From: Candidatus Aenigmatarchaeota archaeon
GTDB lineage: Archaea > Aenigmatarchaeota > Aenigmatarchaeia > QMZP01 > QMZT01
Reading direction: 5' to 3'
Length of the DNA stretch: 19,577 bases
Assembly (NCBI GenBank): GCA_041489155.1
Contig: JBGPQP010000016.1
Location: 1 to 19,577 of the forward strand
In this document: piece by piece, positions 954-19,577 of the stretch
Position numbering within the stretch: the first letter of the stretch is position 1
Layout of the letters: each line of letters starts with the position of its first letter
Made by a program: the position numbers and the translations under genes
Notes under the pieces: generated by a model
Seen by the model: only the letters and a program-made list of their open reading frames with translations
The model's database searches: none
Told to the model about the DNA's origin: nothing

Positions 954-957
954 AGCA

Positions 958-964
958 TTTAAAG
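958..964 (+). promoter_or_regulatory. TATA-box-like element for the leaderless ORF at 985
   Basis: TTTAAAG about 21-27 nt upstream of ATG 985. Confidence 0.4.
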
Positions 965-984
965 TTTTTTGACAATTTCAGTTA

Positions 985-1206: not shown

Positions 1207-1209
1207 TTT

Positions 1210-1923: not shown

Positions 1924-2004
1924 GCGAAACCCCCATCCTCAATTGAATGTGTTTATTTTTTGTAGTTAAGATATAAAAACAACGTTTAAACGAGATGTCC
2001 AGCT

Positions 2005-2247: not shown

Positions 2248-2250
2248 TCC

Positions 2251-2988: not shown

Positions 2989-3044
2989 AGTTTTGTTTTG
3001 TATCACATCTTAAAAAAGAAATTGCGGGGTTCGATTCCTGGCGG

Positions 3045-3758: not shown

Positions 3759-3863
3759 AAAAACTTGCCTGTCTGAATCATATTTTCGGGTTTATAAGAA
3801 TAATGGTTAGATATAAATAAATATTTGCAAAAGAAGCCTTTATCTGAGTTTTAACGGTGAACA

Positions 3864-4688
3864 ATGATGCAATTCGAGCTGCACTGCCATTCGTGTTATT
3901 CAGTGGGCACGAAAGTCCCTACGGAAGGGATACCCAAGCCCGAAGAAATCATAAAGAGAGCGAAGGCAATAGGCCTCGCTGGTATAGCCATAACGGACCA
4001 CCGCACGACGAAGGCGTGGCCTGCCGCCGCCAAAGAGGCGAAGAGGCAAGGCGTGATATTCATCCCGGGCGTTGAGCTGCAGACGGATGCAGGGCATCTG
4101 ATAGCGCTGGGCATAAACGAGCCTGTCCCGAATCTTTTGTCAGTCGAGGAATCAGTCGAAAGAATCCACCGGCAGGGCGGCATCGCAGTCGCCCCGCATC
4201 CCTTCGACATAAAGGGCGATGGCATCGGAGGCCTTGGGATATACGCCGACGCCATCGAAGTCTTCAATTCGCTCAGCATCGAAAAGGTGAACAACCGCTT
4301 CGCCCTGTCGAGATTCGGTCACAAGCGCATTGCGAAGGTCGTGGGATCGGATGCGCATACGCTCGGCATGATAGGCCTTTCCGTGAATATCATGGACGCA
4401 TACGATGTCGATTCAGTTCTGAAATGCATACTGAAAGGCAAGGTGAGCTATGCAGCGAGATACGTGCCCATGGACGAGCTCATGTCATGGGTAAGGCTGC
4501 GCCTGTCCGGCTCGCAGGCAGAGGTTCTGCAGTACGCCAGCCTCAACTACTCGCCTCCAAAGCGCTGGCTTTACACCAAGATGCTCAAGAAGTTTCTCTC
4601 CACCAGCGACAGACCATGGCGCGTGCTGGCGGAAATGAGCCTCTGCGCGGTCAGGGGTTATGGCGTCCTGAAAATCATATCCTACTAA
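3864..4688 (+). CDS. PHP-domain metal-dependent phosphoesterase with C-terminal extension
   Basis: LHCHS.YS, GIAITDH, IPGVE, GHL, AVAPHPF, DAIEVFN and GSDAH form the full set of PHP metal-ligand motifs. Confidence 0.9.
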   Translation: MMQFELHCHSCYSVGTKVPTEGIPKPEEIIKRAKAIGLAGIAITDHRTTKAWPAAAKEAKRQGVIFIPGVELQTDAGHLIALGINEPVPNLLSVEESVERIHRQGGIAVAPHPFDIKGDGIGGLGIYADAIEVFNSLSIEKVNNRFALSRFGHKRIAKVVGSDAHTLGMIGLSVNIMDAYDVDSVLKCILKGKVSYAARYVPMDELMSWVRLRLSGSQAEVLQYASLNYSPPKRWLYTKMLKKFLSTSDRPWRVLAEMSLCAVRGYGVLKIISY

Positions 4689-4777
4689 CCCTTATTATTA
4701 GGCCTAACCTAACATAAAATATGGCTAAAAGCATATCTTCGAGAAAGAATCATTAAATAAGAGATGGTGCCTAGGAC

Positions 4778-7700
4778 ATGAGCAAAAAAGCTTTGATGGC
4801 AATTGTGCTGATTCCGCTATTTTTATTTTTATTTTCTGCTAGCTATGCCGGTGCGGTCGAGATATGCGAGTCCTGCGATGATGTCGAGGACGTGTTCAAC
4901 TCTTATTCTATCTCATGGCTGGGCAATGTCAGACTCGGCGCTACCAACACCATCACTTTGAGCGGCCACCAGAGCCATGGCATAAAGTCCTTGTTAGTCT
5001 CATGCGAGATGCCGTGCGGCAAGCTGGGCGAAAAATGCTGCTATGACGGAGTGGTTAGCGCATTCGTCTGCGATTACAACTACCTCAAATGCACTGCGCA
5101 GGACGAAAGCGGCATATGCGCTTACACCTGCAACCCCGGAGAAACGACGCAGTGCTTCACCTACAGAAACGGCGAAACCATATACGGCGAAGACGCGGTA
5201 ACAACAGGAGCCTGCGCCCCGGGCACTGCGGCCTGCGTTGACCATCTGTGGGGGCCCTGCGAAAACCAGGTAGGGCCTTTCCAGGAGATATGCAACGGCA
5301 TCGATGACGACTGCGACGGCAAGATAGACAACCAGTGGACAGACGACTCTTATCCCATATACACCTATTGCTGCGAAGACGGATACGAATGCGGGGAATG
5401 CGGCATGGGCATGAAATACTGCTTTAACGGCAACTGGCAGGATGACAGCCAGTGCACGAGCATGGCATACGCTTCGCCGGAGCTTTGCAATGGCCTTGAC
5501 GACGACTGCGACGGGGTGATAGATGACGTGGGCAATGGCGCTTCTGTGGAAGAAACGAAATGTGCCTGCTATAACGGAAACGCAAATAAAATAGAGACAT
5601 GCAACGGCCTTGACGACGACTGCAACGAGGTGATAGATGATGTTTATGACGTCTCTACGTGCGCCTGCTACAACGGCGCACACACACCCGGCGAGCTGAC
5701 GGAAAGCTGCAACTCCAAAGACGACGACTGCAACGGGGTGATAGACGACCAGTGGATTGGAACATTGGGCTGGGATTGGCCTTACTATGTCGAATACTGC
5801 GGCATGGGTACGCCGTGCGAGGGAGGTTATTGGAAATGCAATGCGGCCAAAAACGGCGTCGTCTGCTCAACCATAGGCGGCAGCAACAATCTTGCCCAGA
5901 ACGAGACATGCGACAACATAGACAATGACTGCGATAACAGCGTTGATGAGGGCTGCGCCTGCGCACCAGGCAACTGGACCTACTGCGGCTTGAATGTTGG
6001 CGAATGCGTACAGGGGCTGCAGGAGTGCGTTTCTGGTGCATGGAGCACCCAATGCATAAATTACAAAGGCCCGGAAAACGAAATATGCGACGGCAGTGAC
6101 AACGACTGCGACAACATAACAGACAACGTGAACGGCGGCAACTCGACCATTTCTACCAAATGCAGATGCTACAACAAGGGCACACCATCGGCAGAGACCT
6201 GCAACGGCATAGACGACGACTGTAACGGCAGGGTTGACGACGTTGGCAGCGGGACTTCAGTGGATTCCTCGCATTGCAGATGCTATGGAGGCATAGTTAA
6301 ACCAGGAGAAAAAAGCGAGACATGCAATAATATAGACGACGACTGCGACGGCAAGATAGACGAAGAATGGGCCAATCTGGGCAAAGACTGCGGTACCGGC
6401 ATATGCTCTGGAGGGAAGTTTGTTTGCTCCATCAGCGGCAATTACACCGTCTGCTCCACCATGAGCAGCTACGGCATGATGAATGCGACGGACAAGACAA
6501 AGCTCGAGGTCTGCAACGGCATAGACGACGACTGCAACGGCATCGTGGATGACATAGGTGGCATGCAGTCGGTGGAAGACACGAAATGCGGCTGCTACGG
6601 AGGGAAAGCCAAGGCCAGTGAGGCCTGCAACAAGATAGACGACGACTGCGATGAAGGAATAGACGAGGAGTTATTATGCCTGTGTTTTGACGGCCAGAAG
6701 AAGGCCTGCGGCTCGCCCATAGGCGAGTGCGAATTAGGCGAGGCAGAATGCACCGGCGGCGTGTGGGGCAGATGCACCGGAGGCAAAGGCCCTGCCGAAG
6801 AAACGTGCAACATGAAGGACGATGACTGTGACGGAGCGATGGACAATGTTGAAAACGGTTATTCCATAGAAGAAACCCGCTGCGGCTGTTACAACAATGG
6901 CAGGCCTTCCATCGAGAAATGCGACGGCATTGACAACGACTGCAACCAGGTTATAGACGACGACATAGACTGCAGGTGCAGTGAAGGCGAGGAGATGCAG
7001 TGCGGCTCCAACGTCGGAGAATGCACCCCTGGCATGAAGCAATGCATAGGAGGTGCCTGGGGAGCGTGCGCAGGAGGCGTGCTGCCGAAACCTGAAGAAT
7101 GCAACGGCAAGGACGACGACTGCAACGGCGTCGTTGACGACGTCGATGGTGGGAATTCCATAGGTTCTTCCAGATGTGCATGTTACAACAGATTTGCTAT
7201 GCCGTCATCCCAGGACGAGATATTCAACGGCATAGATGACGACTGCGACGGGAAAGTTGATGAGGGCTTCGGGAACGTAGAAGAGCCTTCTCACTGTCAT
7301 GACAACGTCAGGAACGGCGACGAGACTGGCGTCGATTGCGGAGGTTCGTGCAAGAAGGCCTGCCCGGTGATGCCTGCCGTTAACGTATGGATTATCATAT
7401 TCGCGGCGCTTGTGGCGGTCATAGCGATATTCGGTTTGTTCTTCAGCTCCTTCTGGAAGAAGGAGACAAAGTCGCTGTTCGAGAGGGGAAGGGGGAAACG
7501 CAAAATAATTTCCATAGTTTTGGTGGCGCTTTTGGTTGCAGTTTTGTTCGCTGAATATAACGTTAACAGATATTCAGGCTATGCTACTGTGAAGTTCGCT
7601 GGTTCTGAAGAAATGCCGAAAATAAACCAGCAATGGACGTGCGGCAACGGCTTTCAGGGCTGCACTGCGGTAAGCACGCAGGATATCTGCACCCCGGACC

Positions 7701-8539
7701 CCTACCTGCCCATGAACTACAACACCTACAACATCAACCTGCAGGCTCCCGCAGAGGGAAACTACAGCTGCGAGATACGCGTCGTTTCAAATCATTTCGA
7801 CTACAGCGGCACGCAGGAAAACGATGAAAGGACTGACGTTTACCTGAACGGCAAGCTCGTCGGCACGACGAGCGACCTGCGCTGCCCGCCCGGCGGGCGT
7901 AATATAGACGTAGACGTATGTGCTGTGGAGCCAGACTGTGTGTGTTCTGTTTTGCTGGATATCAGCATGTGCGAAAGCAAACATAGCGTAGAGACCTGTA
8001 ACGTCGAACCAAACTGCTGCTGGATGTATACTGACCAGGGAGAGAACGCGGATCGCGGCTGCGGCGGAGTTGGCTGCTGTGCAGGAAAAGGTGGCGTTGG
8101 ATCGCCTGATGAGTACATGGCTTCCGTGCGCCTTTGCTACTGGGACGGAAGCAAATCATGGTGTTTGAAAAAGGCATGCTCAAACGCTGACTGGCAGACA
8201 TACAAATGCGAGAATTACAATAACCAGAACGATTGCAACGATTACACCAAGCACGCCGGCCTTGTCTGCTGCTGGTACGGCGGCAAATGCCAGACCGATG
8301 TCTGCCCGAACTGGTACAGCTCAAGAGTTGACGGGAGATTTGCTTACGCCAAAGGACAGTGCGAGGGCACAGGATCAGACCCTTATGTGCTGCTTCCTGC
8401 CGGGGCATGCACATGGGACAGCGCCAATCCAGGAAGCGTATTCCCGTGCAGATGCGCTTCTGGCTTCAGCTCATACACAAATCCTGACACGTACGTCAAT
8501 GACAGAGGAAGCGAATGCGTTGTGACTGTGCTTAAATGA
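4778..8539 (+). CDS. large secreted/membrane-anchored Cys-rich protein with 14 ExCNGxDDDCDGxxD repeats (putative metal-binding, MopE-like motif)
   Basis: N-terminal signal peptide, 14 counted E-x-C-[ND]-x-x-D-[DN]-D-C-[DN]-x-x-x-D units, a DETGVDCGGSC motif, two internal TM helices and a second Cys-rich C-terminal module. GGTG SD-like sequence upstream. The true 3' end may be 8608 (see findings). Confidence 0.85.
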   Translation: MSKKALMAIVLIPLFLFLFSASYAGAVEICESCDDVEDVFNSYSISWLGNVRLGATNTITLSGHQSHGIKSLLVSCEMPCGKLGEKCCYDGVVSAFVCDYNYLKCTAQDESGICAYTCNPGETTQCFTYRNGETIYGEDAVTTGACAPGTAACVDHLWGPCENQVGPFQEICNGIDDDCDGKIDNQWTDDSYPIYTYCCEDGYECGECGMGMKYCFNGNWQDDSQCTSMAYASPELCNGLDDDCDGVIDDVGNGASVEETKCACYNGNANKIETCNGLDDDCNEVIDDVYDVSTCACYNGAHTPGELTESCNSKDDDCNGVIDDQWIGTLGWDWPYYVEYCGMGTPCEGGYWKCNAAKNGVVCSTIGGSNNLAQNETCDNIDNDCDNSVDEGCACAPGNWTYCGLNVGECVQGLQECVSGAWSTQCINYKGPENEICDGSDNDCDNITDNVNGGNSTISTKCRCYNKGTPSAETCNGIDDDCNGRVDDVGSGTSVDSSHCRCYGGIVKPGEKSETCNNIDDDCDGKIDEEWANLGKDCGTGICSGGKFVCSISGNYTVCSTMSSYGMMNATDKTKLEVCNGIDDDCNGIVDDIGGMQSVEDTKCGCYGGKAKASEACNKIDDDCDEGIDEELLCLCFDGQKKACGSPIGECELGEAECTGGVWGRCTGGKGPAEETCNMKDDDCDGAMDNVENGYSIEETRCGCYNNGRPSIEKCDGIDNDCNQVIDDDIDCRCSEGEEMQCGSNVGECTPGMKQCIGGAWGACAGGVLPKPEECNGKDDDCNGVVDDVDGGNSIGSSRCACYNRFAMPSSQDEIFNGIDDDCDGKVDEGFGNVEEPSHCHDNVRNGDETGVDCGGSCKKACPVMPAVNVWIIIFAALVAVIAIFGLFFSSFWKKETKSLFERGRGKRKIISIVLVALLVAVLFAEYNVNRYSGYATVKFAGSEEMPKINQQWTCGNGFQGCTAVSTQDICTPDPYLPMNYNTYNINLQAPAEGNYSCEIRVVSNHFDYSGTQENDERTDVYLNGKLVGTTSDLRCPPGGRNIDVDVCAVEPDCVCSVLLDISMCESKHSVETCNVEPNCCWMYTDQGENADRGCGGVGCCAGKGGVGSPDEYMASVRLCYWDGSKSWCLKKACSNADWQTYKCENYNNQNDCNDYTKHAGLVCCWYGGKCQTDVCPNWYSSRVDGRFAYAKGQCEGTGSDPYVLLPAGACTWDSANPGSVFPCRCASGFSSYTNPDTYVNDRGSECVVTVLK
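5285..7268 (+). repeat. intragenic coding repeats (TGCAACGGCATAGACGACGACTGC-like), 14 copies
   Basis: The GACGACGACTGC core recurs in frame. GACGACTGCGACGGCAAGATAGAC is identical near 5306 and 6338. Confidence 0.85.
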
Positions 8540-8619
8540 CAGCTACTGCGACGAAGGCCAAATATGCATGGGCGCGCGCCCGACGGCAACTGCGTGTCTA
8601 TGATGTAGGGTAAGATTAA

Positions 8620-9495
8620 ATGGTCAATATTGCGAACGGAGCGCTATTGCTCGGCGTGGTTTTCTGGGCAGCGACTTTTGTGGTCATTAAGGAAGCGGTC
8701 GAATTTGTGGACGTTTACTCTTTCATTTCCGTTCGTTTTCTCATCGCTTCTGCCATATTGAGCTTGATATTTTTCAGAAGATTCAGGAATTACGATTTAA
8801 AAGTCCTTAAGAAAGGGGTTCTAATTGGGATAATCCTGGCAGCTTCCTTTATTTTTCAGGTAACGGGAATCAAATTCACAACCGCTTCCAACGCCGCCTT
8901 TATTACAGGCTTGAGCGTGGTTCTCGTCCCGATTTTCGTATGTTCCATAGACAGGAAGTTGCCTAAAGCGATGCAAATCATGGCAGTTGTATTAGCCTTT
9001 GCAGGACTTGTTTTGTTGACACTGAGGCCCGGTTTCGGCTTCAATGCCGGAGACATGTGGACATTATTGTGTGCTGTCACGTTCGGGATACATCTTATAA
9101 TGATCAGCAGGCTGGTGAAAAAAATTGATGTACCCATGTTCGTTGTCACGCAGTTTCTGACCGTGGCGGTGATAAGCGCAGCGATAGGCCTTTTGTTTAA
9201 CGGCCAAATAGTTATTTCAGATCAGTTCGTTGTCTGGAGGGCGATACTCTTCTGCGCCATCTTCGCAAGCGCTTACATGTATACGGCGCAGGCACATTTC
9301 CAGAGGTATATAACTGAAATAAAAGCGGCAATAATATATTCTTTCGAGCCGCTGTTCGCTGCAGTGATGGCGTTCCTTTACCTAGGAGAAATGCTCACCC
9401 CGCAGGCGATAATCGGAGGGTTGTTGATCTTTATAGGTATGCTTTTATCAGAGTTGAAGCTAAAATCCAAGACTGCATTGCCAGGAGCTACCTGA
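8620..9495 (+). CDS. EamA/DMT-family drug/metabolite transporter
   Basis: About 10 TM helices in two repeats. Motifs: WAATFVVIK, RFLIA, GIKFTTASNAAFITGLSVVLVP, GDMWTLLCA, AAIIYSFEPLFA...LGE. Confidence 0.92.
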   Translation: MVNIANGALLLGVVFWAATFVVIKEAVEFVDVYSFISVRFLIASAILSLIFFRRFRNYDLKVLKKGVLIGIILAASFIFQVTGIKFTTASNAAFITGLSVVLVPIFVCSIDRKLPKAMQIMAVVLAFAGLVLLTLRPGFGFNAGDMWTLLCAVTFGIHLIMISRLVKKIDVPMFVVTQFLTVAVISAAIGLLFNGQIVISDQFVVWRAILFCAIFASAYMYTAQAHFQRYITEIKAAIIYSFEPLFAAVMAFLYLGEMLTPQAIIGGLLIFIGMLLSELKLKSKTALPGAT

Positions 9496-9499
9496 ATTC

Positions 9500-11548
9500 C
9501 TATCTCACGAACAGCACGAACTTTACGACCAGGATTATCAGAATGACGAGCACGATGAGGGCGAGCAGGATGACCCTGCCGCTGCCGCTGGCGAAGCTCA
9601 CTATCATGCCTGTCGGCACCGTGGGTTTGCCGGCTGCCGTGCCTTCTTCATTGACCGGTTCTGGCATGACACCGACTCCGATTCTGAAGAGCAGTTCCTT
9701 TTCTACGTTTGCGGACGCTGCCTTAAGCGAAGCGCTATAAACGCTCTTGTTGACGTCGAAGCCCGGTGAAGCGTAGAGATAAACTGTCGCTTCTTCCCCT
9801 GCTTTGAGGGCAAGCGAATCCTCGCTGATGTGGAACCACGCAGGGGCTTCGAGCGACAAGGCATAGTTTTCCGGCTTCTCGCCGCTGTTCTTTATCTTAG
9901 CTGCGATGGCCAGGCCCTTGCCGGCCTCCACCATGCTGACCGCGCTCTCGCTGGAGATCTCGACGTTGTAGCATTTTTCCTTGGGCTTTATTGTAATCAT
10001 GGTAACCGCTTCCTTGGAAACGTAGTCTGAACGGAGCCTGAAGGTGATGTTGTGCTGGCCGTCAGAGAAGTCCGTTTTAACCGTTGTGGAGAACATTTTC
10101 AGCTCGCCAGGGGACAGGGAAATCACGCCGATGTCATTGTTTTCAACGCCCAAAGTGTAATTCTCCGCGAACTGGCCGGTGTTCTTGAAGACTATTGTAT
10201 ACTGCAGTTCGTCACCCGCGCATATTTCCGCCTTTGCCGGGCTCACGCCGAACTCCGCCGAGTAGCAGTTCTTGACCGTCAGCTTCGCTGAATTCTGGTC
10301 AGAAATATCACCGCTTTTTGCGGCAACTGTGACTAGGGTTTCGCCCGGCTGCATTGTTTTGGTGTCAATGGAAAGCTTGATTTCCTGTACGTCGCCGGAA
10401 TCTATGCTGATCTTTTCGCTTTCAAGCGTCCCGAGGCTCGTGCGGATGTCGTAGGTATCAGCGCCCGTTCCCGTGTTTTTGACCGTGATCTTGAAATCAG
10501 CGGTCAGGCCGCCGCAGATTTCCTGCGCAGACGGCGCAACAATGATAGCGACCCCCCTGCATTCCTTCACATCCACGGCCGCGCTGGAGTTTTTCACCAG
10601 TTTGGGGTAGCCTTTCGAGCTTACAACAATGGTCAAAACTGACTTGCCCTTCGCTTCAGGATAGGCGAAAAGGCCTAGGCTCCTCTCCTCGCCCTGAAGG
10701 ATAGTGATGTTGTCCTGGCTGGGCGTTACCCAGTTCGGAACGCTTATAAGATAAACATCCTCCGACGTCCCGAGATTCTTTAGGGTGAGCACGAATTTCG
10801 AGGAACCTCCCATGCAAGCGGTCGCCTCCGCTGGTTCGAGGTTCATGCTGAAATCATAACATTTGTTCACTTTGACCTGCGTGGATGCCTCGCTTTTGGC
10901 GTAAGATGATTTTGATGCGGCTTTCACTGTTATCGTGCCGCTCTGGGCAGGTGCGTTGACATATACGACGAAGTTCTTCGTCTTTCCGGCATCTATCGAG
11001 ACTGTTTCCTTGTGAAGTTCGGCGCCCCATGACCCGGAAACAATAATTTCGAATTCCTCAGCCGCCTTGCCGTTGTTGGTGGCGCTGAAGTCGTACTGGA
11101 ACTGAGAATCAGCGCAAACTTCTATCGCCTCTTCTACCTTTATCGCTACGTTGTGGCACGTCAAAACCTCGATTTCAACGGCTTTCGTAGCTTCATCAAT
11201 GCCTGCCTTCGCTTTGACGCTCGCCTGATAGACTCCCGGCTCGACTGCCGGCGGGTTGATCCAGAACATTATCGTCTTGGTTTCCCCTGAAGCAAGGGTG
11301 GCGTCAGGCTGGATGAAGCCGTTCGAAGGCGAGGTCCAGCCCTGGGGAAGCCCGAGCGACAGCGAATACGCGTGCGTCTCATCGTCGTTGTTTGTAAGCG
11401 TAAGGTAAAGCGTTTTCGTGTCTGTTGGACACGTGGAAAATTTTTCCTCGGAAAGCGTCATCCCTATGTTGGAATATGCGCTTGCCAGCGGAACCATAAG
11501 GCTGAACAAAACCACTACGGCCAGGATACTGACGATATAATTTCGCAT
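9500..11548 (-). CDS. surface protein with about 6 tandem Ig-like (CARDB/NPCBM-associated, COG1470-like) domains and C-terminal TM anchor
   Basis: Start reassigned from 11608 to ATG 11548, which has SD GGTGGTGA at 11560-11553 and is followed by the signal peptide MRNYIVSILAVVVLFSLMVPLASA. Repeated 'ltlkNtG..edty.l' units. C-terminal TM with basic residues. Confidence 0.85.
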   Translation of the reverse strand: MRNYIVSILAVVVLFSLMVPLASAYSNIGMTLSEEKFSTCPTDTKTLYLTLTNNDDETHAYSLSLGLPQGWTSPSNGFIQPDATLASGETKTIMFWINPPAVEPGVYQASVKAKAGIDEATKAVEIEVLTCHNVAIKVEEAIEVCADSQFQYDFSATNNGKAAEEFEIIVSGSWGAELHKETVSIDAGKTKNFVVYVNAPAQSGTITVKAASKSSYAKSEASTQVKVNKCYDFSMNLEPAEATACMGGSSKFVLTLKNLGTSEDVYLISVPNWVTPSQDNITILQGEERSLGLFAYPEAKGKSVLTIVVSSKGYPKLVKNSSAAVDVKECRGVAIIVAPSAQEICGGLTADFKITVKNTGTGADTYDIRTSLGTLESEKISIDSGDVQEIKLSIDTKTMQPGETLVTVAAKSGDISDQNSAKLTVKNCYSAEFGVSPAKAEICAGDELQYTIVFKNTGQFAENYTLGVENNDIGVISLSPGELKMFSTTVKTDFSDGQHNITFRLRSDYVSKEAVTMITIKPKEKCYNVEISSESAVSMVEAGKGLAIAAKIKNSGEKPENYALSLEAPAWFHISEDSLALKAGEEATVYLYASPGFDVNKSVYSASLKAASANVEKELLFRIGVGVMPEPVNEEGTAAGKPTVPTGMIVSFASGSGRVILLALIVLVILIILVVKFVLFVR

Positions 11549-11585
11549 GACATCACCACCAAAATGGTCTGGATTAATTAATATA

Positions 11586-11604
11586 TTTATAAACTCTATG
11601 GTAG
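11586..11604 (-). promoter_or_regulatory. BRE/TATA promoter of the Ig-repeat gene
   Basis: CTACCATAGAG-TTTATAAA on the minus strand, about 40 nt upstream of ATG 11548. Confidence 0.65.
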
Positions 11605-11670
11605 TCAAATTTTAAAAACAGATATTGTTAACAGAAGAGTTTGAAATTTATCAGAAGGGTTTCAGGGCGT

Positions 11671-11787
11671 TCATGCAGAAATTTCTTCTTTTTCCCTTTC
11701 TTTCAACGTAAACAGCGTTGCATCCAACAGCTCAGCTCTAAGTCCAAGCAAAACTACGTCACCCATTGAAACGCTTCTCATTCTCAT
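11671..11787 (-). CDS. possible small protein, 38 aa (MRMRSVSMGDVVLLGLRAELLDATLFTLKEREKEEISA)
   Basis: Manual translation. Starts 13 nt after the stop of the PKD gene, on the same strand. Below the ORF-track size cutoff. No clear SD. Confidence 0.3.
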   Translation of the reverse strand: MRMRSVSMGDVVLLGLRAELLDATLFTLKEREKEEISA

Positions 11788-11800
11788 TTTTACATCGCTT

Positions 11801-14251
11801 TTATACATTTAAGAAGTCCCTGCCGAACTTAGGATAATAAGTGCCGTCATGGTATTTGACTATTTCCGCCGGCAGCATCCTGCCAATTATGCCAGCATCT
11901 GTCTCTTTCGCTGCTGTTGCGCCTGTATTCACGTTTATTGCGTTCGCAGTGCCGCCAACGCCGGTGCTGCCCTTCATCATCCGCGTGTTCTGCGCGTCGT
12001 AGTAAGCGAAAGGCTTGTGATAAGTTTTGTAGGGCGTACCGTAGACGTGGTCCTCGTACGTTTTTTTCTTGTATCTGCCGGCAAAGAAGTACAGCGCAAC
12101 GAGAACTGCCAGAATCGCGGCAAGCGCTGCTCCGACAAGCCAGTTGCCTTCCAGTGCGCTGATCATGCCTGTCAGGCCATTCTGATTATTGCTTTTGGCA
12201 CCGGCAGGAGCGACGTAAAGCTTAACCGGCTGCTCAAAGGTCTTGCTGCCTGTCGTAACCTTGACTTTGAAATTATAGTTTCCGACGCTCTTAGGAACAA
12301 TGTAAGCGTATACGGTCTGGCTGCCTTTCATCTCGATTTCATTCGGGTAGTTCGCCCAGCCCTCAGGAAGGCCTTCGACAGAGATGGCGAATTTCGCCTG
12401 GTTTGGACTGTAAATATCTATCGCTACTGTCTTGCCGGTGTTTACCTCGGTATCTATGGAAGCAGGACTTATCTTCACTGTCGTTTCTCCTGTGACAGCG
12501 CCGGTGCCTCCGCTTCCGCCGGAACCACCTGTCGGTATGAAGACGCCCGACGTGGCCGGGAAGATCGTTATCTCAGCGGTTTTGTTGAGCTTGCCGCTGC
12601 ATGAAAGATACGCCTCAACGGTCGCCTTGTGAGCGCCGACCGAAAGCGGGAATTCGAACCTCTTCACTGCGCTGTCTCCTGCGCTGAGGTGGACCGAATA
12701 CTGGTCCTTGAAAACCTTGTCAACGTAAAGCTTGAAATACAGCGTGCCTGACTGACCGCCCGTGTTTTCGATCTCGCTCTCGACCCATCCGGTACTCCCT
12801 TCTATCATGTAGGTGTTGTAATCGAACCTGCCGAACAGGATGCTGCATCCCGTTCCTTGCGTCGCCTCGCCGCTCGTACTTCTCGAGGCCGTGGCGTAAT
12901 TGTGTCCCTCGTCGTAAACCGTGACCTCGCATTTTATCGTGTCTTCGGCGTCGGCAAGAATGTCTACGTCCGTGCTCGCTTCGTCGCTGTCACCTTCGAG
13001 ATCGTGCTTGTAGGTGAACATGAGTTCGTCGTTATAATACCATTTGAACCTGACATATGAGAGATCGCCGTCATGGTCGTAAGCCTCGACGTCGCACGTG
13101 AATTTCACATAATTGTTAACCGCTTCCTTGGTGATGCTTATGTCATCTATCTGAGGCCTTTCATCATCGTCGTTTCCGTCGTTGCCGTTGCCAACGTACA
13201 CTACAACTGCTGTGCTCCATAACGATTCATTCTGCTCGTCGTCCTTCACCATAAGCCTCGCGTAATAGATGCCGTCTTGCGAGTACGCATGGTAAGCAAA
13301 AGGTGTCGAAGCAGGCTGCCACGCTGACTGCGAGCCGTCGCCGAAATCAAAAAGATACTGGGTTATGCTACCGCCGTCAGGGTCGTACGAGCCATAGCCC
13401 GAGAACTGGATGTTCTCGTCTTCTTCGGGGTAGCGGTCGTTCACGAAAAGGACCGCAACCGGCCTCTGGGTGTATGATGGTGTGGACGGTGGATAAACCG
13501 GAGGATTAACACTTCCTCCGCTGTAGCCTGAAATGACGACGGGCATCGAATCCTCGACAGTGCTCTGGCCTGCGGCGTCATAAACCTTGGCCCTGCACTT
13601 GAACAGGTCTCCTGCGCTCGCATAGCCGTAGCGCAGGGTGTCGTACGCAGTGTCGCTGGAGCCCATTATGTACTTGGCTGCTGACTTTACCAGCCTGTCG
13701 TTCCTGTACCATTCTATGACAACATAGCCAAGATTATCATCCGCGTCCGTCGCGAAGACGGAGCACGTCAAATCTTGTTGAGGGTTGGGGTGTCTTGGGG
13801 TGATATCCACGTAGGATACGCTTGGCGCAGAATTAGACACCATGTTTCCTACGCGGACAGCATGAGTTTCCCTGTCGTACGCGCCGGCAAAGTCATAGAG
13901 CTTTGCCTCGCAAACAACGTAATCATTCGCTTCCTTTGGCGATGTAAAAACATCATAAGCCGAACTGGTCGAGCCGTAAACAAGCTTGTTGGTCTGCCTG
14001 AGCAGCTGGCCGTTCCTGTACCAACTGAATTCGACGTAATCCAGATTGCCATCGACATCTGAAACGCTGACCGAGCAGGTAAGTTCCTGGTACTTCGTCG
14101 GGTTATCCGGCGTGATACCTATTGCATCGATTACAGGCGGTGTGTTCGCCACTGCAGTCACATTAGCTGGCAAAGAAATCATGACTATTGCTACCAAAGC
14201 CAAAAACATAAAACCAAGATTTTTAACCAAATTCTTCATAAAATCACCCAT
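11801..14251 (-). CDS. surface protein: signal peptide, 3 Ig-like repeats, PKD domain, CARDB-like domains, TM anchor and cytoplasmic tail
   Basis: Repeats of the form 'NxxP.i..i.ItP..P...q.LtCsV...D.DgnL.yV.f.WYrN'. PKD signature FSGYGSYDPDG..TQYLFDFGDG...HAYSQDGIY. Start is 14251 (SD GAGGT) or 14239 (SD GGTGA). Confidence 0.85.
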   Translation of the reverse strand: MGDFMKNLVKNLGFMFLALVAIVMISLPANVTAVANTPPVIDAIGITPDNPTKYQELTCSVSVSDVDGNLDYVEFSWYRNGQLLRQTNKLVYGSTSSAYDVFTSPKEANDYVVCEAKLYDFAGAYDRETHAVRVGNMVSNSAPSVSYVDITPRHPNPQQDLTCSVFATDADDNLGYVVIEWYRNDRLVKSAAKYIMGSSDTAYDTLRYGYASAGDLFKCRAKVYDAAGQSTVEDSMPVVISGYSGGSVNPPVYPPSTPSYTQRPVAVLFVNDRYPEEDENIQFSGYGSYDPDGGSITQYLFDFGDGSQSAWQPASTPFAYHAYSQDGIYYARLMVKDDEQNESLWSTAVVVYVGNGNDGNDDDERPQIDDISITKEAVNNYVKFTCDVEAYDHDGDLSYVRFKWYYNDELMFTYKHDLEGDSDEASTDVDILADAEDTIKCEVTVYDEGHNYATASRSTSGEATQGTGCSILFGRFDYNTYMIEGSTGWVESEIENTGGQSGTLYFKLYVDKVFKDQYSVHLSAGDSAVKRFEFPLSVGAHKATVEAYLSCSGKLNKTAEITIFPATSGVFIPTGGSGGSGGTGAVTGETTVKISPASIDTEVNTGKTVAIDIYSPNQAKFAISVEGLPEGWANYPNEIEMKGSQTVYAYIVPKSVGNYNFKVKVTTGSKTFEQPVKLYVAPAGAKSNNQNGLTGMISALEGNWLVGAALAAILAVLVALYFFAGRYKKKTYEDHVYGTPYKTYHKPFAYYDAQNTRMMKGSTGVGGTANAINVNTGATAAKETDAGIIGRMLPAEIVKYHDGTYYPKFGRDFLNV

Positions 14252-14255
14252 TACC

Positions 14256-14336
14256 TCAATTCTTCTCCTGCATGAGCCATATCATGAGTCTCTTTTCTAT
14301 GTCGCCGAGATTTTCAAGCATGTACAGGGGGTTCAT
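14256..14336 (-). CDS. small upstream ORF, 26 aa (MNPLYMLENLGDIEKRLMIWLMQEKN)
   Basis: Manual translation. Preceded by SD-like GAGGGTG and GATTTT. Its TGA overlaps the GAGG of the downstream gene's SD. It lies between a strong promoter and the PKD gene. Confidence 0.5.
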   Translation of the reverse strand: MNPLYMLENLGDIEKRLMIWLMQEKN

Positions 14337-14440
14337 AAAATCCACACCCTCATTCCCTTCTTTTTTATCTTTTTTAGCTTTGTTTTGAATGTTTTCCAAG
14401 TGTTTTACTATTTACAAGTGATAATTTATTGGTAAGAGGC

Positions 14441-14459
14441 TTTATAAACCTTTCGGTAG
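14441..14459 (-). promoter_or_regulatory. consensus BRE/TATA promoter
   Basis: CTACCGAAAGG-TTTATAAA on the minus strand, a textbook archaeal BRE (CGAAA) plus TATA box. Confidence 0.8.
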
Positions 14460-14484
14460 GGGGTGATGTCGCACGGTTTATAAT

Positions 14485-14874
14485 CTATCTGTAGCCCAAA
14501 CGACCGGAGAATTTGTCGGCCCCGTACAATCTTAGAAGGCGAGCAGGCGTAATGCCGCGAAATCTAACAGAATAACCTGCTTTCTCGCAACATTTTGAAA
14601 CATTCTCGATAAGGCCGCCGGATTCTTGGTGTGGCTCAAGTTTTGGACAATGAATAAAAATATCATCGGGATTCTCCGGAAGTTCTGTAGCATAAGAAGT
14701 TCCATCACGGCCTGTTTCTGGAAACCAGGCAGTTTTGGTTCCTGTCTTCCAGCCTATTACAATGTGTTCTGCAATTGGCAACTCTCCTTTTTTGCTACAA
14801 TTGGGATCAGAACCGCTGCATTTTATATAGTCCGGTTTTTTTGCAGGTCCATCAGATTTATTTTCATTACTCAT
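14485..14874 (-). CDS. hypothetical protein, 129 aa, Cys-containing orphan
   Basis: Clean ORF with GAAAATC-TTTATAAA (TATA at 14903-14896) at leaderless distance. AT-richer than its neighbours. Contains CxxxxxxC, HC and CC residues. Confidence 0.6.
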   Translation of the reverse strand: MSNENKSDGPAKKPDYIKCSGSDPNCSKKGELPIAEHIVIGWKTGTKTAWFPETGRDGTSYATELPENPDDIFIHCPKLEPHQESGGLIENVSKCCEKAGYSVRFRGITPARLLRLYGADKFSGRLGYR

Positions 14875-14953
14875 ATGTAATAAATATATTCAATATTTAT
14901 AAAGATTTTCCCTGAGTTCGGAGTCGGAAGGCAGAATGATATTCAATTTAAAG

Positions 14954-15703
14954 TCATCTGGCCTGCCTGCCTATTTCTTCCTTTATGGTTTTATCAAGGC
15001 CTTTCGGATGGTGGCGGAAGAAGTCCTCGATTTCCGTCGCCTTCCTGTGACTGTGGTGGTAATCTTTGCCTTTAGCCATCAGGCTCCTTTCGTGCAACTC
15101 GTGGATAAGTATGAACTTCCTTTCTCCCGGGTGAATGTCTTGATCGATCCATATCTCGTTATCGGGAATGAAGTGGAAGACCTTGTCATGCCCTCCTCCT
15201 CCGAAAAAAGTGTAGAACACGTCTCTCACAAGCTCGCCGTCGACTATCCACACTCTCACCTTGTCGCTGTATTTCTTCAGCAGTTTCTTGTGGATCATGC
15301 CAATAATTTCCTTCTTGTGCTCCCTCACGCTGCCCAGTTTTTTCATTATTTCGGATTTGCCTCTTTCCCTCTTTTCGGCGAGTGATGCTTTTGCTGAAGC
15401 CTCCTCGAAACTCATCCCTTTCAACATCAGCCTGTGTTCGACCAGCATGTGGTCTATGTAGTATATTATCTCGTCTTCCTTCGTCCCGTCGGCTATCCAG
15501 AACTCGTTCTTTGGTATGAATTTGAAGTTAAAATAATGTGCGTAATTCACGAAATCCTCGCAGATGTTCCTGCGGATGTACTCGCCGTCCACGAGCCATA
15601 CCTGGATTTTGGAAAGCTTGCATATTTTTTTAAGGTAAATTTTCCTGTTGCCGCTTATCCTTACCTTGCCGTTTCTGAACGCCTCGTCGAGAAAAAACCC
15701 CAC
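14954..15703 (-). CDS. hypothetical protein with two tandem homologous domains, the second with an HExxE...H metal-binding-like motif
   Basis: GTG start with SD GGTGGTG. Internal duplication VWxVDGExxR...FIPxNExWI...H..xE..LM.KG. Confidence 0.8.
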   Translation of the reverse strand: MGFFLDEAFRNGKVRISGNRKIYLKKICKLSKIQVWLVDGEYIRRNICEDFVNYAHYFNFKFIPKNEFWIADGTKEDEIIYYIDHMLVEHRLMLKGMSFEEASAKASLAEKRERGKSEIMKKLGSVREHKKEIIGMIHKKLLKKYSDKVRVWIVDGELVRDVFYTFFGGGGHDKVFHFIPDNEIWIDQDIHPGERKFILIHELHERSLMAKGKDYHHSHRKATEIEDFFRHHPKGLDKTIKEEIGRQAR

Positions 15704-15774
15704 GGGGCACCACCTTATTTAATAATTTCGCAGAGCTCGCTTAAGAATTTTAATAGGTCCGTTCAATATGTTTT

Positions 15775-16050
15775 ATGGCACAGATTTTCAGGCACAGAGG
15801 CTTCAAGATAACCAGGCGCCACACCAGAAGAACGCTTTACACCAAGAAAAAACCGCCCGTGAAGAGGGGAAGAGTATATAGGATGTACATAAGCGACGTG
15901 AGCAAGCGCGGCGACGGCGTCGGCAAAATCGACAACTTCGCGGTCTTCGTGCCCGGCGCGGAAATCGGGGAAACCGTCGACGTCAAGATAATCGAGGTCA
16001 AGAAGAACTGCGCTGTGGGGAAAAAAGTAGGCGGCGTAAAGGTAGCATGA
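15775..16050 (+). CDS. single TRAM-domain RNA-binding protein (archaeal RNA chaperone / cold-shock-like)
   Basis: PPVKRG..Y...ISDVSKRGDGVGKIDNFAVFVPGAEIGETVDVKIIEVKKNCAVG matches the archaeal stand-alone TRAM consensus. Confidence 0.92.
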   Translation: MAQIFRHRGFKITRRHTRRTLYTKKKPPVKRGRVYRMYISDVSKRGDGVGKIDNFAVFVPGAEIGETVDVKIIEVKKNCAVGKKVGGVKVA

Positions 16051-16052
16051 TT

Positions 16053-18953
16053 CTATAACAATTCTATTCCCGGCTTCCCCGGCATCGCCTTTGCCGCCTT
16101 GTCGCTTGCTGACGCCTCAGCGCGGGAGATTTCGACATTCAGGTTGAATTCATGCTTGAGGAATTTCGCTGCCTCCAGCAAAGCGCCAAACTCCTCGTCC
16201 TGGCCGAGGATTTGGGACGGCAGCTTTGACGGGTCCTTGACGACGGACGGGACGAACCTGGAGATTTCCTGGCCGTGCTCCTTGTCCACCACCGCCTTCA
16301 TTATCTTGCCTATGTCCCTGGTTTTCTCCATTTCGTCCTTCAGCTTCTGGAAGAAGGCGTATTTCCACTTGGGTGAAACGAAAAGCCTGATCTTCTTCGG
16401 CTCGATTTTCACGAGCCTGAGCACGCTCCTGATATCTTCTGTGACGCAGTCCACCAGCTCGTCGGAAGCGACGAATTTCTCGTTTATCATCTTCTTATCG
16501 CTTTCAGGCCAGCCCCGGAGCGAGGAGAAGCCTTTGCCGCCAGACTTTTCCCACAACTCCTCGCTGATGTGCGGCACAACAGGATTGAGCATGCGTATGT
16601 ATTTGTCCACGAAAAGCCCGTAAACTGCATGCAATTCATTCGCGTCCGAGCGGCGCTTCAGCTTCTTCAGCCATGAGGGGATCGAATAAAGCACTATGCT
16701 GCCGTAATCCCTGAGGCGCATTTCGGACAAAGCTTTGTCCGCTTCGGCGACAGCGGCCTCGAATCTGGCCATGAAAGCCCTGCCGAGAGAACCCAGCTCT
16801 TCGTGTCCGCGCTTTTTATGCTCATGGTTTCGCCTGCGGATTGCTTCTGCGACCATTTCGTATATTCCAGAAAGCGTTTTCTGGATGTTCTCGGCTTCGT
16901 TCGTCTTCCAGTCGAACGTGCCTTCAAGATTCGTCGCCGTAGAGATGTACGCGCGGAACGTGTCCGCCCCATACGTATTCTTGACGTCCAGCAGCGTGAT
17001 GACATTGCCCTTCGACTTCGACATCTTCATGCCACCGCTCTGAACAAACCCATGGAAGGAAATCTTCTTCGGCCAGTATTTCTCCGGGAAAATGCCCGCG
17101 TGGGCGAAGATGAAGAATGAAAGATGGTTGGAAAGATGGGCGACGTACGTATGGCGGTGGTCGTTCGGGTACCAGTAGTCGAACTGCGAGCGCATCTCTT
17201 TCAGGTTTTCTGCAGGGATATGAGTAAGCTTGCTCACGTGCATCGCATCGCCTTCGCCAAGATAAACGTAATCGAAAAATGCCGTTTCTAGCTGCTCAGG
17301 CTTTATCCTGTACTTGTTTATCAGGTTCTTGATGATGTAGAAGCTCATGTAAATCGTCGAGTCGGACAGCGATTCTATTATCCAGTCACGGTTGAAAGGC
17401 AGCGGCGTCCCCAGGCCCCTCCTCCTCGCTGCCGGCCTCTTGTCAAGCCATTCGAACGTATCTTCAAAGAGTTTTCTCATCGTGCCAGGCAGCAGCTCCA
17501 TTTCCCTGAGGCATCTGGAAGCGAGCGGTTTCCAGCCTTTGGCGTTGAAGTCGAGGAACCACTGGTCTTCCAGGACGGAGACCACGACTCTGGTTCCGTC
17601 CCTGCAGAAAGCGGCTCTGGACGTTTCATAAATAACATCCGCCTCGCCGCTTTCGATGAGCTCCTTTTTCACCGCATCCTTCGCATCGATGACTTTCATG
17701 CCTGCATATTTGCCGCAGTTCTCGTTCATCACGCCAGTGTGGAAGCCTTCCTTGTAAATCGTCTGCGTCGCCCCCTCCAGGCGAGGATCATGCTGGTTAG
17801 CCAGCGAAAGCTGCTCCGATATCCGCAGAGCGGCAAGGTCGCCCCAGCCCGGAATTTTTATGATTGGTATCGGCTTTATTTTCCTGACCTCCTCGGTGTC
17901 CAGGCCGTATTTCTTGCAGGTTTCCCTGTCGTTCTGCAGGTCCTTCAGCGCCATCCAGTCGTACGGCGCGTCAGAAGGTACGCTGGTAACGATGCCGCTC
18001 CCGACATTCGCTTCAACGAACGTGGAAGGGAGAATAATGACTTTCTTGCCGATGCCCGGTGCTCTTGCGTATTGGCCTATAAGGTCCGCTCCTTTTACGT
18101 AGCCTGCCGCCTTCAGGCCTTTCTTCTGGAAATTTAGTTTTTCGTAGCCTTCCCTGCTCATGACCCAGGTCTCTTCACCAGCTGCGATTTTCATGTATTC
18201 GGTTTCCGGGTTCACCCAGAGATTCGTTTGTCCGAATACGGTCTCGGGCCTCAGCGTCGCGGCAACCAGAATCAGGCCGTCGTCCATCCTGAATTTAAGG
18301 AGCGTGAATTCGAGTTTCGAGACGGGATTGGTGTCCGCGTCCTGTATGTCGTCCTCGCCGACGGCGTTCTCGCATTTGGGGCAGTAAAGCACGGGATAGC
18401 TGCCTTTTATCAGGTAATTCTTGTCCCGGTATTTCATGAACTGCCAGGTTATGAACTTCTGGTAGTCGGGGTCGCCAGTCGTGAAGCGCCTCGTCCAGTC
18501 GATGCTCAGGCCGAGAGAGGCATATTCATCCATCATTTTGGGGATAAAGAAGTTGACAATGTTCCACGGCTCGCTGAAGGAGCGCACGATTTTGGCAGCT
18601 TCCTTTTCATTCTTCACGTAATTGCGGACATAGCTCTTATACAGATCGATTTTTGCCTGGTCGCATGCTTCGATTGCGGCGGATATGCCAAGCACCGGCG
18701 TTCCGGTTATGTGGAACGCCAGCGGGTAGAGAACGTTGAAGCCCTTCATGCGCATGTAGCGCACGTAGATGTCGCTTTCAGCCACTGCTCGCCCGTGGCC
18801 GATGTGGAGGCTGCCTGAGATGTACGGATAAGGCGTGGTGAAGAAGAACTTCTTCTTCCCGCGGTCGATTTTGGGCTCGAATATTCTGCCCTCCCTCCAC
18901 CGCTTCTGCCATTTTTCCTCGGTCTTCCTGAAGTCGTGCGCGCTCTCTGCCAT
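16053..18953 (-). CDS. leuS: leucyl-tRNA synthetase, archaeal/eukaryotic type
   Basis: PYPYISGSLHIGH, KMSKSKGN, CP1 editing motifs ATLRPET and GSGIVTSVPSDAPYD, WIIESLSDSTIY, and C-terminal AMPGKPGI. Confidence 0.97.
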   Translation of the reverse strand: MAESAHDFRKTEEKWQKRWREGRIFEPKIDRGKKKFFFTTPYPYISGSLHIGHGRAVAESDIYVRYMRMKGFNVLYPLAFHITGTPVLGISAAIEACDQAKIDLYKSYVRNYVKNEKEAAKIVRSFSEPWNIVNFFIPKMMDEYASLGLSIDWTRRFTTGDPDYQKFITWQFMKYRDKNYLIKGSYPVLYCPKCENAVGEDDIQDADTNPVSKLEFTLLKFRMDDGLILVAATLRPETVFGQTNLWVNPETEYMKIAAGEETWVMSREGYEKLNFQKKGLKAAGYVKGADLIGQYARAPGIGKKVIILPSTFVEANVGSGIVTSVPSDAPYDWMALKDLQNDRETCKKYGLDTEEVRKIKPIPIIKIPGWGDLAALRISEQLSLANQHDPRLEGATQTIYKEGFHTGVMNENCGKYAGMKVIDAKDAVKKELIESGEADVIYETSRAAFCRDGTRVVVSVLEDQWFLDFNAKGWKPLASRCLREMELLPGTMRKLFEDTFEWLDKRPAARRRGLGTPLPFNRDWIIESLSDSTIYMSFYIIKNLINKYRIKPEQLETAFFDYVYLGEGDAMHVSKLTHIPAENLKEMRSQFDYWYPNDHRHTYVAHLSNHLSFFIFAHAGIFPEKYWPKKISFHGFVQSGGMKMSKSKGNVITLLDVKNTYGADTFRAYISTATNLEGTFDWKTNEAENIQKTLSGIYEMVAEAIRRRNHEHKKRGHEELGSLGRAFMARFEAAVAEADKALSEMRLRDYGSIVLYSIPSWLKKLKRRSDANELHAVYGLFVDKYIRMLNPVVPHISEELWEKSGGKGFSSLRGWPESDKKMINEKFVASDELVDCVTEDIRSVLRLVKIEPKKIRLFVSPKWKYAFFQKLKDEMEKTRDIGKIMKAVVDKEHGQEISRFVPSVVKDPSKLPSQILGQDEEFGALLEAAKFLKHEFNLNVEISRAEASASDKAAKAMPGKPGIELL

Positions 18954-18964
18954 ACGTATTGCCC

Positions 18965-19004
18965 TTTTAAATAATATTAATAGACTGCCGGGTATTATAT
19001 AAAA
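18965..19004. promoter_or_regulatory. AT-rich divergent promoter region for leuS (-) and tRNA-Arg (+)
   Basis: TTTTAAATA (18965-18973, +) and TTTTATATAA (19004-18995, -), each about 40 nt upstream of the respective gene start. Confidence 0.5.
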
Positions 19005-19031
19005 TAATCAAGGGCGTGTAGCTCAGCTGGA

Positions 19032-19071
19032 AACAAGGGAAGAAACAGACCTGGTCTGTTTCGGTCTGCAG
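19032..19071 (+). other. tRNA intron 1 (40 nt, D-loop, after position 20)
   Basis: Relaxed BHB: GCTG (19026-29) / CTGC (19066-69) with one U.U mismatch, bulges GA|A and AG|T, inner AC/GT pairs. Internal hairpin GAAACAGACC-T-GGTCTGTTTC. Removal restores the typical Arg GGATAGAGC. Boundary could be off by 1 nt. Confidence 0.75.
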
Positions 19072-19089
19072 TAGAGCGCTGGCCTTCTA

Positions 19090-19176
19090 TGCAGTTCTGC
19101 GCCATTGGGTGCGGGGCAAAGCTTGGAAGATTTGAAACGAAGGGGTTTCTGCTTCTTCGTTGATGATAAAGAAGAA
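19090..19176 (+). other. tRNA intron 2 (87 nt, canonical 37/38 position)
   Basis: Central 4-bp helix CTTC (19084-87) / GAAG (19171-74), bulges TA|T and AA|A, closed by the anticodon stem. Confidence 0.88.
19118..19170 (+). ncRNA. putative intron-encoded box C/D guide RNA (target U34)
   Basis: Guide GCTTGGAAG at 19121-29, D-like TTGA at 19132-35, 10-bp hairpin 19136-19161, C-like TGATGA at 19161-66. The D+5 nucleotide A19127 pairs with U34. Confidence 0.6.
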
Positions 19177-19218
19177 AGCCTGAGGTCGGGGGTCCGAATC
19201 CCCCCACGCCCGTCTGTC

Positions 19219-19243
19219 TTTTTAAAAATTTTTCAAAATAAAA
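19219..19243. terminator. bidirectional T-tract terminator between tRNA-Arg (+) and tbp (-)
   Basis: TTTTTAAAAATTTTTCAAAATAAAA gives oligo-T runs on both strands between convergent genes. Confidence 0.55.
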
Positions 19244-19255
19244 AGCTGGCAGGAT

Positions 19256-19576
19256 TCACTCCGCCATCGGCTTTACCTTAACGCCGATTTCCTCGAGCTT
19301 GATTTTGAACTTGTCCAGCGCGCGGTAGATGTCGTCCACGCTTTGCGCGCCCGTGCAGATTATCTTGCCCGAGCTGAACAGCAGGAATGCAACGCGCGGC
19401 TCGCTTATCCTGTAGACGAGACCCGGGAACTGCTCCGGCTCATACTCGGCATTTTCAAGGGAGAAGGCGATGTCTTCGAGATTCAGGTCAGCCTTTATCC
19501 TCGCTGATGCTACTATGTTCTCCACCTGTATCGGATATTTGTCAGGGACTTTAATGCCGGTTTCCTTTATCTTCGC
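19256..19576 (-). CDS. tbp: TATA-binding protein, C-terminal repeat (5' part outside window)
   Basis: The frame is open to the window edge: ...AKIKETGIKVPDKYPIQVENIVAS...AEYEPEQFPGLVYRISEPRVAFLLFSSGKIICTGA. The 89-aa ORF-track start is internal. Confidence 0.97.
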   Translation of the reverse strand, partial: AKIKETGIKVPDKYPIQVENIVASARIKADLNLEDIAFSLENAEYEPEQFPGLVYRISEPRVAFLLFSSGKIICTGAQSVDDIYRALDKFKIKLEEIGVKVKPMAE

Positions 19577-19577
19577 G

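Follow-up and report, generated by a model that had tools for sequence, protein, structure and literature searches.

An intron in the anticodon loop of a tRNA-Arg(UCU) gene from a Candidatus Aenigmatarchaeota archaeon bears a conserved layout that joins a kink-turn (K-turn) to an antisense of the anticodon loop, with U34 as the most likely target of a predicted ribose methylation. The gene lies in a contig of the assembly GCA_041489155.1 (JBGPQP010000016.1, positions 1 to 19,577), and this whole 19,577-nt stretch is referred to below as the window. On comparative sequence evidence, we consider it reasonably probable that the intron serves as a box C'/D'-type guide with a single K-turn for the formation of Um34, and that guide pairing competes with the splicing fold of the precursor.

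A tRNA-Arg(UCU) gene with two introns

The host assembly comprises 1.13 Mb in 39 contigs and is ~90% complete. On the minus strand, a gene for a class I aminoacyl-tRNA synthetase (16053-18953) and one for the TATA-binding protein (19256-19576) flank the tRNA-Arg(UCU) gene and point to an archaeal host; the parts of the tRNA gene are listed in Table 1. ARAGORN and Rfam did not detect the gene in the raw window because it is split by two introns; once both had been scripted out, ARAGORN called tRNA-Arg(tct) and the exons folded as a cloverleaf with a UCU anticodon. For annotation, this means that such a gene escapes standard tRNA finders entirely. A nearly identical copy of the AT-rich stretch 5' of the gene precedes the L004 orthologue, and D-loop introns like the one at 19032-19071 also split tRNA-Arg(CCU) and other tRNAs of relatives (L012, L013, L015, L017). 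The U28.U42 mismatch of the anticodon stem (19080/19181) recurs in four genomes of the window's genus, where the 3' strand GCCUG is unchanged and preserves a CUGA (19180-19183, positions 41-44) situated 10 nt past the C'-like box; in the genome G005, the stem is paired and CAGA takes the place of CUGA.

Table 1. Features of the tRNA-Arg(UCU) locus in window coordinates and, in the last row, the related introns of the same genome (G000) in contig coordinates
Feature	Position	Strand	Basis
Promoter-like AT-rich stretch 5' of the gene	18964..19008	+	sequence; promoter role inferred
tRNA-Arg(UCU) gene, two introns, discriminator G19212 included	19012..19212	+	T-arm/acceptor pairing scan; ARAGORN after intron removal
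D-loop intron, 40 nt; ends uncertain by 1-2 bases	19032..19071	+	comparison with orthologues without the intron (G002, G003, G005)
Anticodon loop C32-A37, target strand; U34 = 19086	19084..19089	+	sequence; pairs with 19124-19129 in minimum-free-energy fold
Anticodon-loop intron, 87 nt, position 37/38	19090..19176	+	sequence; ARAGORN 87-nt intron after D-loop intron removal
Variable hairpin 1, 10 bp, between target and guide	19094..19117	+	fold
Putative antisense guide GCUUGGAAG (DNA GCTTGGAAG); A19127 opposite U34	19121..19129	+	sequence; shuffle test
D'-like box UUGA; G19134 and A19135 sheared partners	19132..19135	+	invariant in alignment A1
K-turn canonical stem, 11 bp (19136-46/19151-61), loop 19147-50	19136..19161	+	fold; covariation
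C'-like strand: bulge GAU 19162-64, sheared G19165-A19166, U19167, A19168	19162..19169	+	register NNU-GA-N-A common to orthologues
Splicing strand: GAAG 19171-74 with C32-C35 as central helix; 3' bulge A19175, A19176, A38 (19177)	19171..19177	+	sequence geometry
3' exon; anticodon-stem 3' strand 19178-82, U28.U42 mismatch	19177..19212	+	sequence
Terminator-like T-rich run 3' of the gene	19218..19236	+	sequence; terminator role inferred
Seven further introns with the module (G000)	C4:39060-39271, C10:27291-27425, C3:95076-95212, C13:17027-17170, C2:49753-49921, C20:4957-5105, C9:8170-8420		

The putative guide can form 9 of 9 pairs (one of them G-U) with the spliced anticodon arm C32-C40, and the dinucleotide AT (19130-31) separates it from TTGA. 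An initial annotation of this DNA had described this pairing with A19127 facing U34, had located the 9-mer at 19121-29, TTGA at 19132-35 and TGATGA at 19161-66, and had cautioned that the D box reads TTGA rather than CTGA, all of which the sequence bears out. In the unspliced transcript, the contiguous guide duplex is just 6 bp (C32-A37) and is followed by a U.U mismatch and two more pairs.

The two box-like strands enclose a hairpin with the arms AACGAAGGGG(T)/(G)CTTCTTCGTT, which the initial annotation had noted as 10 bp and which folds as 11 bp. Beyond it, G19165 and A19166 pair with A19135 and G19134, U19167 is opposite U19133, and A19168 pairs with U19132. The idea that the boxes face each other as a K-turn holds for the tandem G.A and U.U pairs and needed correcting in its register, which is shifted so that the bulge is GAU and an A-U pair follows the U.U. 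Given this bulge and the sheared GA at 19165-66, the hairpin can stay closed, and this register, common to all 13 sequences compared, does away with the earlier reservation that its base must open. Both boxes deviate from consensus (UUGA versus CUGA, UGAUAA versus UGAUGA); together, the C-to-U change in the D'-like box and the G-to-A change in the C'-like box turn the usual G-C pair into A-U.

With these elements the intron has the internal C'/D' motif (K-turn or K-loop) of archaeal box C/D sRNAs, together with an antisense in the usual range of ~9-12 nt directly 5' of D/D' and the target opposite the fifth nucleotide. It falls short of a complete C/D sRNA for want of a terminal box C (RUGAUGA)/box D (CUGA) K-turn: neither a box C 5' of the guide nor an intronic box D was found, and a search of the 87-nt intron returned no second K-turn. 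We tried CUGA 19180-83, with its 10-nt spacing, as a box D for the C'-like box and rejected it, as it sits in the 3' exon, G005 has CAGA instead and other tRNAs carry no CUGA there. The best scores against Rfam C/D families were 17.5, 12.7 and 9.9 bits versus gathering thresholds of 70, 80 and 50. The initial claim of an intronic C/D guide aimed at its own U34 therefore survives as an internal C'/D' motif in fixed register, and not as a complete C/D RNA.

Intron shuffling produced a 9/9 complement in 359 of 100,000 trials and a complement plus GA in register in 31 of 100,000, and the pattern GCTTRGAAGNNNNGA has one match in the window versus 0.03 expected. A within-gene shuffle of the guide, which is a weak control, reached the 6-bp run in 443 of 500 trials and was not significant for Arg. 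The case for the putative guide rests on conservation, not on the single sequence of the window.

Folding the precursor yields two mutually exclusive structures. Left unconstrained, the RNA pairs C32-A37 with 19124-29 around a nested hairpin 1 (-41.0 kcal/mol), and a fold of the whole gene reproduces this pairing. The enforced splicing fold, in which C32-C35 pair with G19171-G19174, is less stable than the guide duplex by ~4 kcal/mol (-36.8 kcal/mol). It can be drawn as a bulge-helix-bulge made of the anticodon stem, a 4-bp helix and two 3-nt bulges (U36-A37-U19090 and A19175-A19176-A38); no helix past the 5' bulge (h') could be made out, and the splicing motif would accordingly be of the relaxed type (hBH). 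In the minimal introns of G078 and family f19, the GA of the K-turn itself belongs to the splicing strand GAAGAA. Four orthologues, L047 (G004), L039 (G009), L042 (G017) and L037 (G018), contain an extra insertion of 39-62 nt, with the guide intron's last bases (…CGAAGAA) directly on one side and A38 on the other; it resembles a second, abutting intron and would impose an order on splicing.

Conservation among orthologous introns

Orthologous genes with recognisable introns were collected by BLAST over 61 relatives. The strict pattern CTTCTA-N5-35-TTRGAAGANTTGA matched 13 of the 91 genomes of the order, whereas its reversed control matched none (0/91); the matches fall in the window's own genome, in 11 of 22 others of its family and in one of 47 genomes of another family. 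In all 13 order-level orthologues, UUGA leads into a stem no shorter than 4 bp, after which come a 3-nt bulge whose last base is U and then GA, and in all 13 the guide is (G)CUURGAAG. Each of the four pairs that close the stem has changed on both sides in alignment A1, where 100% of cells are paired, against 24-58% in slid controls in which the partner was shifted by 1-3 columns; wherever columns 13/72 have letters (12 of 12 cells), they form the U-A pair. Run over the genome collection, the strict Arg pattern gave no hit in a tRNA gene among the 80 loci listed, a result that is uninformative on distribution or taxonomy.

A looser Arg pattern matched 67 of 251 genomes of the class, and its reversed control also matched ~45 genomes; this pattern being noisy, only genes read individually were counted. 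On that basis, the module is present inside tRNA-Arg(UCU) in 36 genomes from seven families of one class (f1, 13 genomes; f5, 5; f3, 2; f19, 12; f22, 1; f27, 2; f34, 1). In 36 of 36 genes, two nucleotides separate the guide G paired with C32 from NNGA, and with this constant spacing the fifth base upstream is always opposite U34. What varies around this core is the intron length (33-143 nt), the NNGA box (UUGA, CUGA, AUGA, UCGA, UGGA or CGGA across the class) and the first hairpin, whose length and sequence differ among orthologues and which is missing in G017, G078 and family f19. The second half of the module is a hairpin K-turn or, in family f19, a classical K-loop (CUGA-5/6 nt-GAUGA). The guide, boxes and spacing that the initial annotation had singled out are accordingly kept in orthologous introns.

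The same annotation had taken the spliced anticodon arm as the pairing partner. This fits the window's genus, where the spliced loop is favoured (9 versus 6 bp), whereas other lineages pair better with the exon-intron junction. Among 29 parsed orthologues (six loci were unparsed and the G012 row was misparsed), 8 show better guide pairing with the precursor and 12 with the spliced form, the remaining 9 being equal, and a general preference for either target was rejected on this split. The core kept in every orthologue is 6 bp with C32-A37.

The module in other tRNAs and the methylation machinery

Seven more introns of this genome combine a K-turn with an antisense that matches the respective anticodon. 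The base faced at N+5 is position 34 in tRNA-Gln(UUG), tRNA-Glu(UUC), tRNA-Leu(UAA) and tRNA-Trp(CCA), with a best complement including that base of 9-11 bp; it is C32 in tRNA-Lys(UUU), with 10 bp, and U39 in tRNA-Thr(UGU) and tRNA-Ser(UGA), with 9-11 bp that cover the intron end and A38 onward. According to a parser run over the family orthologues, position 34 is the target at 13 of 18 Glu, 14 of 17 Gln, 9 of 17 Leu and 10 of 17 Trp loci and position 32 at 7 of 10 Lys loci, leftover loci being unparsed or spurious picks. The register is not universal, since the Lys genes and three of the 17 Trp genes aim at 32, not 34. Two covariations support genuine pairing by the putative guides: in Lys, the nucleotide next to the guide is U with A31 and C with G31, and in Gln genes of genus g9, a guide A becomes G where position 33 is C. 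A loose Lys pattern was discarded as noise, as it matched 85 of 91 genomes and its control equally many; that scan contains a hint of a CTTTTA-N8-TTAAAAGTTGA(TG) form in families f6 and f2. No module was found in the C34 isoacceptors tRNA-Arg(CCU), tRNA-Gln(CUG) and tRNA-Glu(CUC) of this genome, or in its intron-less four-box tRNAs, tRNA-Gly(UCC) and tRNA-Pro(UGG).

Several observations on neighbouring tRNAs emerged from this survey. Eight tRNA-Gln(UUG) loci (L123, L129, L130, L122, L128, L127, L131, L135; genera g2, g6, g7, g9, g10) read C-C-UUG-G, that is, C33 instead of the near-universal U33. The tRNA-Ile(UAU) gene (G000 C1:82600-82728) has a body close to that of tRNA-Arg(UCU) and a 56-nt intron that resembles the Arg module minus the guide core, with the second GA lost (…AGCUU-UGA…UAU-AG). 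In tRNA-Lys(CUU) of genus g9 (L095, L098, L099), the intron contains a K-turn AUGA…UGU-GA, and an upstream CGGAUAU pairs with the intron end and A38-G42, which would put U39 at N+5. Two tRNA-Leu genes (G000 C6:10229-10386 and C10:26056-26211) have complex non-canonical insertions; one of these contains CUGA-UUCAAG-AUGAUG beside a strand pairing with …UCAAGACC and is possibly a guide for C34 of tRNA-Leu(CAA). A recurring hairpin (…ATGACGCA…TGCGTC…, with TTCG/ATCG flanks) is nested in intron loops, including inside K-turn stems (G000 C2:49753-49921, C3:6549-6742, C9:8170-8420, C20:4957-5105), and resembles a mobile intron module.

The genome encodes L7Ae, Nop5 and fibrillarin, the proteins of archaeal box C/D sRNPs, for which the initial annotation had advised a check. 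Two contig ends (G000 C11:5-430 and C7:3-221) each bear a part of the fibrillarin gene, probably because of an assembly break. Fibrillarin was detected in 83 of the order's 91 genomes and in 23 of its 23 high-quality ones; among the 20 order genomes with the Arg module, a match is missing only in G001, which is 84% complete. Crude pattern scans of the genome for canonical two-box C/D sRNAs gave no full match, and the reversed genome makes a poor control for these scans because TGATGA occurs 783 times in the genome versus 160 times in its reverse.

Neither a SpoU-type methyltransferase nor Elp3 was found in this assembly, and Elp3 occurs in only 8 of the 91 order genomes (missing from 83). We nevertheless rejected Um34 as a simple replacement of Elp3-type wobble chemistry, as the Elp3-positive genomes G024, G028 and G080 carry the Arg module. 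For the Elp3-positive genus g8, pattern and BLAST searches turned up no tRNA-Arg(UCU) gene.

Relation to known guides, proposed mechanism and alternatives

The tRNA-Trp introns of Euryarchaeota possess the boxes C, D', C' and D. Like these introns, described for Haloferax volcanii and as Pyrococcus sR50, the intron studied here would place a guide in the anticodon loop and aim it at ribose 34 of its own tRNA (the Trp intron makes Um39 in addition to Cm34; PMC7994747, PMC11408192). The Trp guide is used by L7Ae, Nop5 and fibrillarin, all three of which are encoded here, and the tRNA-Trp intron of the present genome also has the module, aimed at C34. Unlike the euryarchaeal intron, which is a complete C/D RNA with two guides, the Arg(UCU) intron has one K-turn, one guide and a uridine as its predicted target. 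A further parallel is the 66-nt intron found in elongator tRNA-Met from N. equitans, also a tiny archaeon, which is a stable C/D-box-like RNA in which a strong hairpin accompanies a box D and a mutated box C (Randau 2012, PMC3491384). A role as methylation guide was proposed for it with no target named in the text available, whereas U34 of tRNA-Arg(UCU) can be named as the predicted target here; the same paper states that functional C/D RNA was previously known solely from tRNA-Trp introns.

Positions 32, 34 and 39 of archaeal tRNAs are established sites of guided ribose methylation (PMC7994747, PMC6009581, PMC7668247, PMC11408192). Pyrococcus sRNAs aim at the wobble base of Leu(CAA), Leu(UAA), Met and Trp, sR50 being the tRNA-Trp intron (PMC7994747); Pyrobaculum guides are directed to C34 of Trp, U34 of Gln (sR27), C34 of Val and U34 of Thr (sR46) (PMC6009581), and Um34 has been measured in Sulfolobus tRNA-Gln(UUG) (PMC7668247). 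As read here from sequence alone, the intron would use the chemistry of these trans-acting RNAs and follow their N+5 rule at position 34; a U34 in a tRNA from a two-codon box is among the bases that they serve. It differs from them in that they are separate genes with two K-turn motifs, and the targets listed in the portions of these papers cited omit Arg(UCU) and Glu(UUC). Archaeal C/D RNPs normally require both motifs for efficient and specific methylation (PMC1635284). The single motif of the intron has the features of an L7Ae-bound K-turn or K-loop, namely a stem with a 3-nt bulge whose last base is U, followed by tandem G.A/A.G pairs, U.U and a Watson-Crick pair, and departs from a classical box C'/D' K-loop in that A-U replaces G-C after the U.U and an 11-bp hairpin replaces the loop.

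The initial annotation had thought the arrangement undescribed in a tRNA-Arg, and we likewise found no report of a guide in a tRNA-Arg intron in the literature searched, a body of text from which subscription journals were largely absent. The available part of a 2024 review of intron-dependent tRNA modification names Trp alone (PMC11408192). Within the literature searched, the intron-borne guides described are those of Trp in Euryarchaeota, with a hint for Met of Nanoarchaeum, and no others.

We propose that 19132-19169 of the precursor folds as a K-turn whose 11-bp stem is followed by the bulge GAU, by tandem G.A/A.G pairs and then by U.U and A-U; L7Ae would bind this K-turn and recruit Nop5 and fibrillarin to it. 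Pairing of 19121-29 with the anticodon loop would bring A19127 opposite U34 and direct 2'-O-methylation of that nucleotide. As C32-C35 are needed both by the guide duplex and by GAAG 19171-74, the RNA must refold before cleavage; formation of the bulge-helix-bulge would then precede the endonuclease cuts at 19089/19090 and 19176/19177. The two exclusive folds are the picture expected of a precursor that is methylated and then spliced, the order being presumptive. The module would act at the precursor stage, either in cis or between two precursors, and in the window's genus, an extra GCU:AGC pairing would let the excised intron act on the spliced tRNA. Protein binding, methylation and the order of events are the parts of this scheme that we infer.

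The main rival to this mechanism is a structural or timing role of a putatively L7Ae-bound kink-turn without methylation. In the structural version, which we hold to be unlikely, the K-turn is an L7Ae-binding scaffold that folds the long intron and presents its splice sites, with the antisense as one of its arms. The K-turn does lie 4 nt from the strand that makes the central helix of the splicing motif, its GA falls within GAAGAA in the minimal introns, and a protein-stabilised fold could be useful where h' is not evident. Within the antisense duplex, however, the 5' splice site is hidden, and the duplex is a competitor of the splicing fold and not a part of it; a scaffold explains neither the constant NNGA spacing in 36 of 36 genes nor why, across eight tRNAs, position 32, 34 or 39 is invariably the one faced.

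The timing version, in our estimate improbable, has the antisense keep the anticodon loop and the 5' splice site masked by pairing until a K-turn-bound protein frees them, with no modification involved. It draws on the greater stability of the guide duplex over the exclusive alternative fold and on the tight hairpin between target and guide in many lineages (loops of 4-8 nt), yet a mask needs neither a fixed distance to a GA dinucleotide nor guides extending to the 3' junction with U39 as the faced base, as in Thr and Ser, and no regulator is evident. That the resemblance is due to chance, or that the intron descends from an inserted C/D sRNA gene, now decayed and non-working here, we regard as very improbable: the degenerate boxes, the short cis duplex and the non-significant within-gene shuffle would fit such an origin, but the module is kept with compensatory changes across seven families, the reversed-pattern control is empty, and guide plus GA in register is as rare among intron shuffles as stated above.

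Extending the guide interpretation beyond tRNA-Arg, we tentatively suggest, with somewhat less than even confidence, that the lineage practises a self-service methylation of anticodon arms, in which at least eight tRNAs of one 1.1-Mb genome would possess natural half-mer guides (for position 34 in Arg, Gln, Glu, Leu and Trp, 32 in Lys, and 39 in Thr and Ser) and methylation would be a checkpoint before intron removal. If so, the predicted marks are Um34 on Arg, Gln, Glu and Leu, Cm34 on Trp, Cm32 on Lys, and Um39 on Thr and Ser. The proposed design is a stripped-down form of the intron guide, with one kink-turn instead of two, present in tRNA-Arg and seven other tRNAs of one tiny genome. Were it confirmed, single-K-turn (half-mer) RNPs would be a physiological form of the C/D particle that is used in nature, and the retention of long tRNA introns and of the fibrillarin machinery in reduced genomes would be explained.
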